Shown in pieces: positions 6,926-21,601 of a DNA stretch of 64,000 nt. The position numbers and the translations under genes are program-made. How positions within the stretch are numbered: position 1 is the first letter of the stretch; the number at the start of each line of letters is the position of its first letter. The stretch lies in assembly GCF_043195095.1 (NCBI RefSeq), contig NZ_JBAFWN010000001.1. One strand, written 5' to 3'. This DNA comes from Xanthobacter sp. VTT E-85242. Its GTDB lineage: Bacteria; Pseudomonadota; Alphaproteobacteria; Rhizobiales; Xanthobacteraceae. The notes beneath the pieces were generated by a model. That model was not told where the DNA came from. It saw nothing but the letters and a program-made list of their open reading frames with translations, and did no database searches.

Positions 6926-9900
6926 TCACCACGCATCCGGCTGGTCGAGCAGGCCCGTGGCGGGGGCGGCGGGCTCCGAGGTTTCAGGCTGCGGTTCGGG
7001 CGGCTCCAGCACGGTCCGCAAATCGCCGAGCAGGGCCTGGGGCGCGGCTGTAACCGCCCGCGCGAGGCGCACGAAATCCGCCGCCATGGCCTCGACCGTT
7101 TCGGCATCGAACACGTCGCTGGAATATTCCAGCAGCAGTTCGAGATGCGGCTTCTCCTCGAACATGAAGTTCAGATCGTATTTCGCGCTGACGCTGGCAT
7201 CGCGCAGGGCGACGCCCGTGGCGGCACCGAGATCGAGCCGCACGGGATCGTTGTTCTGGAGGATCACAACCACGTCGAACAGCGGCGCGCGCCCCTCTTC
7301 CTCGGCGGGGCCGACCGCCTCCACCAAGGCGTCGAACGGGAAGGCCTGGTGGGCAAAGGCGTCGAGAACCAGCGCGCGCTCGGCGGCGAGCAGGTCGGCG
7401 AAGGCGGCGCCCTCGCGCACCTGCCCGCGCAGGGCGAGCATGTTGAGATAGAAGCCCACTTGCGGCTCCAGCTCCAGCCGGTCGCGCCCGGCGACCGGAG
7501 TGCCGATGACGATGTCCTCATCCCCCGACAGCAAGGCGAGATGCAGCCGCACCAAAGCGGTGAGCAGCACGAACAGGCTGGTGTCGGCGCGCCGGGCGAG
7601 GCCGTTCAGGCCGGCGGTGAGCACATCGTCCATGATCGCGGGCACGATGCGCCCGGCGCCGCTTGGGCGTGCGGGCCGCGCGTGGTCGGTGGGCAGGTGG
7701 AGCACCGGCGCGCCCTCCTCAAAGCGGCCGAGCCAATAGGCGCGCGCCGCCGCACCAAGCTCCTGCCCGCTCTGCCAGACCGCGTAATCCTTGTATTGCA
7801 GCTCCAGCGGCGGCAGGTCCGACAGGCCCGGCAGGTCGATCGCGGGGGCGCGGGGGCTGTGGAGCGCGGCCCGGTACAGGGCCTCCAGATCCCGCAGCAT
7901 CACATTCACCGACCAGCCGTCGCAGACGATGTGATGGATATTGATGAGGATCGCCCCGCCGGTGCGCGCCGGATCCGCCAGCAGATGCACCCGCAGCAGC
8001 GGCCCGGCGGCGAGGTCGAACACATGGTGGAATTCTTCCTGAAGACGCCGCGCGATCTCATCCTCGCCCCCCGCGCCGCGCGCGAGGAACAGTTGGTCGG
8101 GTCCAGCGGCGCGCACCTCCTGGCGCGGCACGCCGCCCCGCGTGAGGAAGCGCGTGCGCAGGATTTCGTGCCGCGCCACCAGCGCAGTGAAAGCGCGGGC
8201 GAGCGCGTCGAAATCCACCACGCCGTCGAGCCGGAGCGCGCCCACCATGTTGTAGGTGACGGTGGACGGGTCCAGCGCCTGCACCATGAACAGACGGCGC
8301 TGGGCGAAGGAGAGCGGATAATCCGCCGCCTCCGCCGCCGGCAGCAGCGCGTTCGGCGGCGGCACCACGGCGCCCGCGCGCCCGGCGATCAGCTCCACCA
8401 GCACGCCGAGAGTCTGGGAAGAGAAAAAATCGCGCAGATCGAGGCTCGCGCCAAGCCGCTGGCGCAGCCGCACCACGGCCTGGTTGGCTTTCAGGCTGTG
8501 GCCGCCCAGCTCGAAGAAATTATCCTCAAGCGCCACCGCCGGCAGGTCGAGCACCTCGCACCAGATATCGGCCACCGCTTGCTGGAACGGCGTGAGCGCG
8601 GCGGCGCCCTGCCCCTGCGCGGCACCCTGGGCGCCGAGCGGCGCGCCGCCCTCGGCCCGCAGCGCGCGACGGTCGGCCTTGCCGTTGGCGGTGAGGGGAA
8701 TGGCGGCCACGCGGATGAAGCGCGCAGGGATCATATAGTCCGGCAGCTTGTCCGCGAGATGATGGAACAGCGCCTCGCGCCCGAGCGCCGCGCCCTCGGC
8801 ATTGGCGTGCGGCACGATGTAAGCGGTGAGGCTCTCGCCTCGGCTGTCCGCGCGGTCGCCGCCCTCGGGCATGACGGCCGCGTCGCGGATGCCGGGATGG
8901 GCGATCAGCTGGCGTTCGATCTCGCCCAGCTCGATGCGGAAGCCGCGGATCTTCACCTGGTCGTCCATGCGGCCGAGATAGAGCAACGCTCCGTCCGCCC
9001 CGATGCGCCCGAGATCGCCGGAGCGATAGAGCCGCTGGCCGGGCAAATCGGGATGGGAGATGAAGCGGTCGGCGGTCAGATCCGGCCGGTTGAGATAGCC
9101 GCGCGCCACCCCGTGTCCGCTGACGAGGATTTCCCCGGTCAGCCCGCGCGGCCGCAGTGCGAGGTCCGGCCCCACCAGCACCACGCCATAGGAGGGAAGC
9201 GGAGCGCCGATGACGCTGCGCCCGTCGGCGATCTCTTCCGCGCCGATCTCCTTGAAGGTGACATGCACGGTGGTCTCGGTGATGCCGTACATGTTGACGA
9301 GGCGCGCCTGGGGATAGAGCGCCCGCCAGGGCGCGAGCCGCGCCGGCAGCAGGGCTTCCCCGCCGAACACGATCTCGCGCAGGCGCAGCGGCAGCGCCTC
9401 GCGGGCGCAGGCGGCATCCGTGAGGGCATAGAAGGCGGTGGGCGTCTGGCTGAGCACGCTCACGCCCTCGCGCGCCAGCAGGTCGAGGAAGGCGCCGGGC
9501 TCGCGGGTCAGTTCCTGGGGCACCACCACCACCCGGCCGCCGAACAGCAGTGCGCCGTAGAGTTCCCAGGTGGAGAAATCGAAGCAGGCGGAATGGAACA
9601 GCGTCCACACGTCCTGCGGGCCGAAGTCGAACTGGCGGCCGCGGTGGAAGAACAATTGGATGACGTTTCGATGCTCGATCATGCAGCCCTTGGGCCGCCC
9701 GGTGGAGCCCGAGGTATAGATCACATAGGCCAGATCCTGCGGCCTCGCGCGCGGCGCGGGGTTGGCCGACACCATCGCGCCGCCGGCAATCGTCACATCC
9801 TCGATCACCAACACCTGCGCGCCGAGCGAACGGGCCAGCGCGGCGTGCGCGGCATCGGCGACGATCAGGCGCAGGCCGCTGTCGCCGGTCATGAAGCGGA

Positions 9901-21601: not shown

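Follow-up and report, generated by a model that had tools for sequence, protein, structure and literature searches.

The megasynthase gene

In this study we analysed a stretch of 64,000 nucleotides from Xanthobacter sp. VTT E-85242 (contig NZ_JBAFWN010000001.1), called the window in the following, and describe a megasynthase encoded in it that joins polyketide synthase (PKS) and non-ribosomal peptide synthetase (NRPS) domains. We searched Pfam with the whole protein and with ten overlapping pieces of it, and used NCBIfam as well for the domain order. The resulting order is fatty acyl-AMP ligase (FAAL), acyl carrier protein (ACP), ketosynthase (KS), acyltransferase (AT), a second ACP, aminotransferase (AMT), condensation domain (C), the relic of an adenylation domain (A), peptidyl carrier protein (PCP), C, C, A, PCP and C. 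The E-values of the Pfam matches range from 1e-10 down to 1e-256, and chance is therefore ruled out for these domains. A sequence-only reading of the window had proposed a single protein of 4891 aa with the start FAAL-ACP-KS-AT-ACP-AMT-C, three more C domains and one intact A domain, continued by AsnB and further NRPS modules. Both the call of the open reading frame (ORF) and the Pfam matches, with four C domains in all, bear this out (Table 1).

The ORF has the codon-position composition of a coding sequence (GC1/2/3 = 0.75/0.51/0.87), as the real genes of this sequence of ~70% GC do, and its GC content is 0.66-0.74 across the gene. Translation probably starts at the ATG of aa 20 (nt 21544), 19 codons inside the GTG at 21601, since the alignment with the Pseudochelatococcus orthologue sets in at this point. 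Two Xanthobacter/Roseixanthobacter strains, Azospirillum agricola and Pseudochelatococcus have intact orthologues, which are 4863-4902 aa long and share the domain order. The full-length Pseudochelatococcus protein (P0241, 4863 aa) was recovered in an exhaustive representative search with the third C domain as query. The AMT region is 95-96% identical in Xanthobacter sp. VTT E-85241 and VTT E-85238 (Roseixanthobacter liquoris), with a 'Rhizobiales' metagenome-assembled genome (MAG) equally close, and 66-69% identical in Azospirillum agricola and an Azospirillaceae MAG. We calculated the ratio of nonsynonymous to synonymous substitution rates (dN/dS) per domain between the window gene and the two Xanthobacter/Roseixanthobacter strains. 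It is 0.0-0.23 for all catalytic and carrier domains and 0.36-0.46 for the linker between the second ACP and the AMT. Purifying selection acts on the entire ORF. No catalytic motif is missing, and the serine is kept in all carrier domains.

Table 1. Position of the megasynthase, its domains and the neighbouring genes in the window
Feature	Position	Strand	Description
NRPS2	2..5050	-	runs past left window edge; A(DVRHLALLA)-PCP-C-A(DAATIAAVC + inserted methyltransferase)...
AsnB	5051..6922	-	glutamine-hydrolysing asparagine-synthase-type amidotransferase; Pfam; Cys2 nucleophile
Megasynthase ORF	6926..21601	-	single uninterrupted ORF, 4891 aa, 14.7 kb
C4	7010..8326	-	aa 4426-4864; HHIVCDG; pairs with the A-PCP opening NRPS2
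PCP2	8387..8581	-	aa 4341-4405
A (Thr-type)	8678..10150	-	aa 3818-4308; code DFWSVGMVHK; AMP-binding + AMP-binding_C
C3	10202..11500	-	aa 3368-3800; HHGIADK; divergent extra C between C2 and Thr A
C2	11552..12832	-	aa 2924-3350; HHIISDV; ordinary C-type
PCP1	12890..13075	-	aa 2843-2904; GGHSL; carrier of the A-less module
A-domain relic	13136..13510	-	aa ~2698-2822, ~125 residues; C-terminal subdomain only
C1	13532..14818	-	aa 2262-2690; HHIVADG; directly after AMT, as in MycA-type systems
Class-III PLP aminotransferase (AMT)	14855..16165	-	aa ~1813-2249 (structure alignment); Pfam Aminotran_3
ACP2	16577..16777	-	aa 1609-1675; GLDS serine
AT (cis)	17165..17941	-	aa 1221-1479; GHSAG + malonyl-type HAFH
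KS	18380..19468	-	aa 712-1074; Cys-His-His triad DTACSS, HGTGT, NIGH; KS-AT linker also matched
ACP1	19562..19750	-	aa 618-680; GFTS serine
FAAL	19847..21448	-	aa 52-585; Pfam AMP-binding; ACP directly after
S58 DmpA/BapA-type aminopeptidase	21627..22814	+	divergent from megasynthase; membership doubtful
Chaperone-like ORF	22840..23397	-	185 aa; N-terminal hydrophobic signal-like segment; sub-threshold TY-Chap3 (type III secretion/YbjN chaperone-like)
S12 serine peptidase	23512..25134	-	like D-aminopeptidase DAP; cluster membership uncertain
Sfp-type phosphopantetheinyl transferase (PPTase)	25200..25997 (start approximate)	+	Pfam ACPS; tblastn 45% identity to Pseudochelatococcus cluster PPTase
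NRPS3	25883..29893	-	C-A-PCP-thioesterase (TE); Asp code DLTKLGHIGK; termination module
BBP2_2 porin	29914..31233	-	upstream of NRPS3; shared with Azospirillum only
SPFH/Band_7	31230..32783	-	upstream of NRPS3; in all three genera
Small hydrophobic membrane ORF	32872..33030	-	~53-75 aa; in all three genera
DUF697	33217..33834	-	in all three genera
Type II thioesterase (TEII)	34585..35448	+	Pfam Thioesterase; 51% identical to Pseudochelatococcus cluster TEII
Alpha/beta hydrolase	35494..36513	-	57% identical in Pseudochelatococcus cluster

Initiation domains

The best NCBIfam model for the N-terminal adenylating domain is the fatty acyl-AMP ligase NF006624, and its PDB matches include the FAALs 3PBK and 3KXW, plus FadD32. 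The sequence-only reading named inactive relics of KS and AT as grounds for its refutation. The intact Cys-His-His triad, GHSAG and HAFH motifs speak against this. Pfam detects no ketoreductase, dehydratase or enoylreductase domain in the megasynthase, including the region between AT and ACP2, and a beta-keto acyl-ACP would therefore be available for transamination.

The aminotransferase is identified by its structural relatives. The top PDB match of this region is the AMT domain of MycA (6KFM/6KFR/6KFU; E 9e-146, 489 bits, 437 residues aligned), against 181 bits for the best glutamate-1-semialdehyde aminomutase. The pyridoxal phosphate (PLP) lysine lies in a conserved YGK(V/I)(V/I)GGG motif, which reads YGKVVGGG here (aa 2082-2089) and YGKIIGGG in MycA, and the segment around it, DIVTYGKVVGGG, aligns to MycA DLVTYGKIIGGG. 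The doubt whether the AMT-like region is a true aminotransferase with its PLP-Lys is thereby removed. C1 is homologous to the post-AMT C domain of canonical ACP-AMT-C-A-PCP proteins (35-40% identity, 97-99% query coverage).

As far as domains and motifs can tell, the protein contains the whole set for FAAL-PKS-aminotransferase lipoinitiation: a FAAL with its carrier, a KS and malonyl-type AT free of reductive domains, and an AMT followed by a C domain. The MycA-type logic for a beta-amino fatty acyl starter, as put forward in the sequence-only reading, is supported by the domain order, the motifs and the lack of reductive domains.

The first NRPS module

The first NRPS module has a carrier domain and the stump of an A domain. 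This relic aligns only to positions ~376-502 of 505 in models of adenylate-forming enzymes, and the region has neither an AMP-binding Pfam match nor an adenylation core. The A10 lysine is replaced in the window protein and still present in one metagenomic fragment. In Azospirillum agricola the stump is kept in length and position at 42% identity, and Pseudochelatococcus and metagenomic fragments have it at the equivalent place too, which argues that the loss of the A core is not recent decay. Its dN/dS is 0.30. PCP1 is 100% identical in both VTT strains (dN = 0) and is the most constrained domain of the protein. A carrier without its own A domain that shows such constraint is therefore expected to be in use, and it would have to be loaded in trans.

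The lost adenylation core and A10 lysine, together with degenerate C5 motifs in C1 and C3, might also be taken to mean that the megasynthase is a decaying relic and the gutted A domain the mark of a dead pathway. We find this scarcely credible, since the 14.7-kb ORF is uninterrupted in four genomes from three genera, the stump itself is conserved, dN/dS is well below 1 throughout with the strongest constraint on PCP1, every catalytic motif is intact, and conservation extends to the PPTase, the TEII and the remaining NRPS genes. The dN/dS values likewise rule out a pseudogene.

Modules that lack an A domain and are loaded in trans have precedents. Module 9 of syringomycin SyrE is loaded in trans by SyrB1/SyrC. 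In legonmycin biosynthesis the C1-T1 part of LgnD is served by the TEII-like LgnA, a thioesterase-fold shuttle (PMC10880069). The window resembles both systems in having a C-PCP unit without adenylation and thioesterase-fold or alpha/beta-hydrolase proteins in the same cluster. Unlike legonmycin and syringomycin, which have a dedicated free-standing A-T donor, no such donor is visible here, and the A domain of another module would therefore have to serve twice.

The tandem condensation domains

C2 is joined to C3 by a short glycine-rich linker, and no carrier domain intervenes. Database proteins of the typical PCP-C-A kind match PCP1-C2 and then stop, at ~50% query coverage. C3 has the motifs SFHQERLWFVDRFE...YYNMP and HHGIADK, and the usual GR motif is deleted before a degenerate C5 motif. 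Against solved C domains in the PDB it reaches ~108 bits at most. The domains matched are of the elongation type (Txo1, TycC), and at E < 1e-5 they include no lipoinitiation C domain such as that of RzmA. The orthologues contain a C3-like domain with HHxxxD(K/R), and an unrelated metagenomic protein (P0147) has the order C-C*-A-PCP, with a canonical Thr code in its A domain by manual reading. The exhaustive representative search with C3 gave mostly giant proteins with many C domains and defined no C3 subfamily.

We also considered other functions for these domains. C2 is not an epimerisation (E) domain, because it has C-type motifs only (QYKD, IGFFVNTLALR, PFD, RNPLF) and all E motifs are absent, while these are plain in the true E domain of the NRPS2 orthologue described below. 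The N-terminal HH[ILVM]xxxxGD (HHxxxxxGD) motif of dual C/E domains was found nowhere, and heterocyclisation domains are excluded since every C domain carries HHxxxD. For C3, an 'interface' domain serving a beta-hydroxylase was also considered; by tblastn the window contains no TauD homologue, and the Pseudochelatococcus loci had none called.

The tandem pair raises the question whether the assembly line is colinear at all. In the icosalide synthetase of Burkholderia, a tandem C pair is used to bring in a second fatty acid, the C domain adjoining the A domain being of the starter type (PMC10510592). As in that system, two adjacent C domains lie here directly before the A domain of a hydroxy-amino-acid module. 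By a branched, non-colinear logic of this kind, C3 would transfer an acyl group, such as the beta-amino fatty acyl group on ACP2, straight to Thr-S-PCP2, and C2 would join the PCP1-bound unit to a second nucleophile, the beta-amino group or the Thr hydroxyl, giving a branched or reversed lipopeptide in place of a plain chain with the beta-amino acyl group at its N-terminus. Tandem C-C before an A domain is rare, with few proteins among the matches listed covering both C domains, and its recurrence before a Thr A domain in P0147 would suit such a function. So would the HHxxxD motif of C3 in all homologues, its dN/dS of 0.13-0.17, and the A-less module, which leaves one C domain beyond the need of a colinear chain. 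Against it, the PDB matches of C3 are of the elongation type with no lipoinitiation domain among them, C1 is related to the post-AMT C domains of canonical proteins, and no second acyl donor is evident. We judge the branched logic unlikely.

AsnB and the downstream synthetases

The start codon of AsnB directly follows the megasynthase stop codon, and AsnB scores 446 bits against TIGR01536 (cut-off 267). Azospirillum (67% identity) and Pseudochelatococcus (73%) have it at the corresponding site, and in all three genera it is packed tightly between the two NRPS genes. The simplest option for its role would be the amidation of an Asp. The order megasynthase-AsnB-NRPS2 is conserved.

The Pseudochelatococcus orthologue of NRPS2 is 65% identical, 2473 aa long and organised as A-PCP-C-A(methyltransferase)-PCP-E. 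Its E domain has the motifs HHLVMDIVSW, ESHGRE, RTVGWFT and FNYLGQ and is preceded by a PCP of the GGDSI type. Because this orthologue ends in an E domain, a C-A-PCP-TE protein is needed next, and NRPS3 fits. NRPS3 occurs together with the megasynthase in all three genera, and its Asp code is identical in all three. In NRPS2 itself, the first PCP (aa ~564) has a GGDSL motif and is followed by a plain-looking C domain (HHIVADVWS). According to a review, PCPs of the GGDSL type accompany E, dual C/E, DCL or dehydrating C domains. Given this carrier, the residue at the third position (X3) might be epimerised or dehydrated.

Specificity codes of the A domains, a check that had been suggested in the sequence-only reading, were obtained with GrsA-PheA as reference. 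They comprise the Thr-type code of the megasynthase (in the Azospirillum orthologue the canonical Thr code DFWNIGMVH), DVRHLALLA and the Phe/Tyr-like DAATIAAVC of NRPS2, and the Asp code of NRPS3. The Thr, DVRHLALLA and Asp codes are conserved between genera. Five positions can carry an amino acid, namely PCP1, PCP2, two in NRPS2 (the second deduced from its orthologue) and one in NRPS3, and they have only four A domains between them.

A further candidate, a prodrug system of the ClbP/XcnG type with an N-acyl-D-Asn, was rejected. Such systems have a C-A(Asn)-PCP-E starter and a periplasmic S12 peptidase with C-terminal membrane helices. Here no E domain follows PCP1, and the S12 protein of the window is DAP-like and has no signal peptide or hydrophobic segments.

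Proposed pathway and product

We think it likely that the megasynthase is the first subunit of a working FAAL-PKS-aminotransferase-NRPS line, and that its product would be a pentapeptide lipopeptide with a beta-amino fatty acid. The domain identities, the catalytic motifs, the purifying selection and the conservation of the cluster and its A codes are observed directly. All chemical steps given here, including how PCP1 is loaded, what C3 and AsnB do and how the chain is released, are predictions from these observations.

The FAAL would adenylate a free fatty acid and load it onto ACP1. The cis AT would place malonate on ACP2, and the KS would extend the acyl chain once to a beta-keto acyl-ACP, which the MycA-type PLP aminotransferase would convert to the beta-amino fatty acyl-ACP. 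C1 would then condense the beta-amino fatty acyl group onto an amino acid X1 on PCP1, which would have been loaded in trans by one of the four A domains of the cluster, possibly assisted by the TEII or the alpha/beta hydrolase. The C2-C3 pair would pass the chain to Thr on PCP2, and C4 would hand it to NRPS2, which would add X3 and then an N-methylated aromatic residue epimerised by the E domain. NRPS3 would add Asp, and its TE would release the chain, most likely by cyclisation. At some stage AsnB would amidate a carboxylate, likeliest that of an Asp, supplied as Asn or converted to Asn. The predicted chain is thus probably beta-amino fatty acyl-X1-Thr-X3-D-N-methyl aromatic-Asp, cyclised by the TE.

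Several observations weigh against this proposal. The FAAL domain scores 338 bits against NF006624, under the curated cut-off of 600 bits. There is no free-standing A-PCP in the window or in the related loci for the A-less first module. C3 is an extra domain with no role in a colinear scheme, and the canonical colinear reading may fail at this point. NRPS2 is incomplete at the window edge, so its PCP-E end is taken from an orthologue at 65% identity. The A-domain codes depend on the GrsA-PheA reference sequence used, and we know of no substrate that the code DVRHLALLA matches. Finally, the cluster could be silent.

A more far-reaching possibility is that the A-less PCP1, the divergent C3 and the embedded AsnB together define an undescribed lipoinitiation logic, which we regard as doubtful. 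In one version, the A domain of NRPS3 could load PCP1 with Asp through the thioesterase-fold or alpha/beta-hydrolase proteins, and AsnB could amidate it on-line. In another, the extra C domain could branch the chain by taking the beta-amine or the Thr hydroxyl as nucleophile. If true, either version would lead to a new lipopeptide scaffold from an alphaproteobacterial lineage without known NRPS products.

Relation to known systems

The initiation order, acyl ligase-ACP-KS-ACP-aminotransferase-C, is the same as in Bacillus MycA, ItuA and BamA, and as in MycA the predicted beta-amino fatty acyl starter would be joined to the first amino acid. Iturin-family synthetases rely on the separate FenF for malonyl transfer, and the first module of MycA carries an A(Asn) domain. 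The window protein has a cis AT instead, and its first NRPS module lacks a working A domain. Unlike the iturin synthetases, the system also has an extra C domain, an operon-embedded AsnB and five amino-acid modules rather than seven, and its host is an alphaproteobacterium of ~70% GC and not a Bacillus. By its sequence the initiation is MycA-like, but the synthetase does not belong to the iturin family, because A(Asn) is missing, the AT is built into the protein in place of a trans enzyme, and the modules number five, not seven. Of the designation mycosubtilin/iturin-type, the part that concerns initiation holds, while family membership does not, given the A-less first module and the different downstream line.

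A Gram-negative precedent for MycA-like initiation is ralsolamycin. Its synthetase RmyA from Ralstonia solanacearum has been described as MycA-like with FAAL-KS-AMT, and its product is characterised; luciferase-like monooxygenase domains accompany its aminotransferase domains, and the RmyA-RmyB system has ten A domains (PMC4989320). Like RmyA, the window protein is a megasynthase of a Gram-negative, high-GC proteobacterium that starts with FAAL-KS-aminotransferase and continues as an NRPS. It differs by lacking a monooxygenase, by its cis AT and A-less first module, and by having only four A domains to serve five carrier positions. The earlier remark that no characterised product is known from this kind of organism therefore goes too far where Gram-negative high-GC proteobacteria in general are meant; among Xanthobacter and its relatives, the literature searches found none.

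In puwainaphycin-type systems, FAAL and ACP are separate proteins, and peptide length and tailoring also differ from the system described here. In these cyanobacterial systems, a fatty acid activated by the FAAL undergoes one round of extension and is then aminated, which yields the beta-amino fatty acid that starts a lipopeptide (PMC4219810). The chemistry of initiation is already established, and the locus adds no new principle to it. Occidiofungin also contains a beta-amino acid. It is listed among FAAL-dependent products in a review (PMC11837247).

Full-text literature searches on Xanthobacter, Roseixanthobacter, Pseudochelatococcus and Azospirillum returned no product or study of this cluster. 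Judged by sequence, it is an uncharacterised (orphan) gene cluster common to Xanthobacter/Roseixanthobacter, Pseudochelatococcus and Azospirillum. Its value is that of an orphan natural-product lead, since no lipopeptide from these genera is reported in the literature searched. Some of the organisms that carry it are industrial or agricultural, as single-cell protein strains and plant-associated nitrogen fixers, and the production of a membrane-active lipopeptide would therefore bear on safety and biocontrol. The A-less module, the extra C domain and the embedded AsnB are test cases for the tolerance of NRPSs to missing and surplus domains. This makes the cluster of interest to NRPS enzymology, though it will be unsurprising to a specialist. 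A comparative-genomics preprint describes only a modest set of biosynthetic gene clusters in Xanthobacter sp. SoF1, with PKS and NRPS not dominant, which suggests that the cluster varies between strains.

Cluster extent and neighbouring genes

From the genes it contains, the cluster extends over at least 36 kb, from past the left window edge to ~36.5 kb. In the window the order is NRPS2, AsnB, megasynthase, S58, chaperone-like ORF, S12, PPTase, NRPS3, porin, SPFH, small ORF, DUF697, TEII and alpha/beta hydrolase, and identities between these genes and their counterparts in the other genera range from 34 to 73%. In Pseudochelatococcus the genes lie on one contig. The order is a major facilitator superfamily transporter, megasynthase, AsnB, NRPS2, an ATP-binding cassette transporter, an S12::autotransporter fusion and TEII, followed by DUF697, the small membrane ORF, Band_7, NRPS3 (C-A-PCP-TE), PPTase and alpha/beta hydrolase. 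In Azospirillum agricola AsnB is downstream of the megasynthase, and on the other side are S12::autotransporter, DUF697, small ORF, Band_7, BBP2_2 porin, NRPS3 and TauD.

The PPTase gene runs towards NRPS3 and shares the last ~115 bp of that gene, and the same convergent overlap exists in Pseudochelatococcus. It is easily overlooked among the spurious ORFs of high-GC DNA. A motif scan detected no MbtH-like gene, and Rfam and tRNA scans of the window gave no matches. For the set of porin, SPFH, small ORF and DUF697 genes, we can only guess at a function in export or in self-protection of the membrane.

In Azospirillum agricola a TauD-type dioxygenase gene adjoins the Asp-specific NRPS3 (locus L010, 14069..15037), and its congener may therefore carry beta-hydroxy-Asp. 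Together with the terminal Asp and the porin gene, this observation could suggest a siderophore or metallophore of lipopeptide nature, comparable to the beta-hydroxy-Asp lipopeptides with FAAL initiation in Betaproteobacteria, and not a membrane-active compound of the iturin kind. In the table of a review, many FAAL-initiated lipopeptides of Pseudomonadota are indeed siderophores (PMC11837247). We consider this very unlikely for the window cluster. A TauD homologue is neither found in the window by tblastn nor called in the Pseudochelatococcus loci, the genes checked include no TonB-dependent receptor and no hydroxamate or catechol genes, and one chelating residue at most is predicted. The beta-amino-acyl aminotransferase is in addition typical of iturin-, puwainaphycin- and ralsolamycin-type lipopeptides.

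The S58 and S12 genes form a pair between NRPS3 and the megasynthase in the Xanthobacter lineage only, and the other two genera carry the S12::autotransporter fusion. The window S12 was tried as an orthologue of these fusion genes and rejected, with 30% identity over 180-190 aa only. No transmembrane segment is predicted in the S58 or the S12 protein, and among solved structures the two Ochrobactrum enzymes 1B65 and 1EI5 are closest to them. As enzymes acting on N-terminal D- or beta-amino acids, they may process or detoxify the product. The chaperone-like ORF is conserved in Xanthobacter strains only. The S58 gene, this ORF, a Zn-dehydrogenase gene and an IalB gene have no counterpart in the Pseudochelatococcus and Azospirillum cluster loci examined, and these four probably lie outside the cluster.

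Further along the window, the region 50000..57400 has a GC content of 0.57-0.62, against 0.64-0.74 in most of the remainder. Most of the ORFs tested in it are without a Pfam match, including one of 656 aa (52623..54593), and it contains a sulfotransferase-like gene (51697..52518). This region may be a foreign insert.

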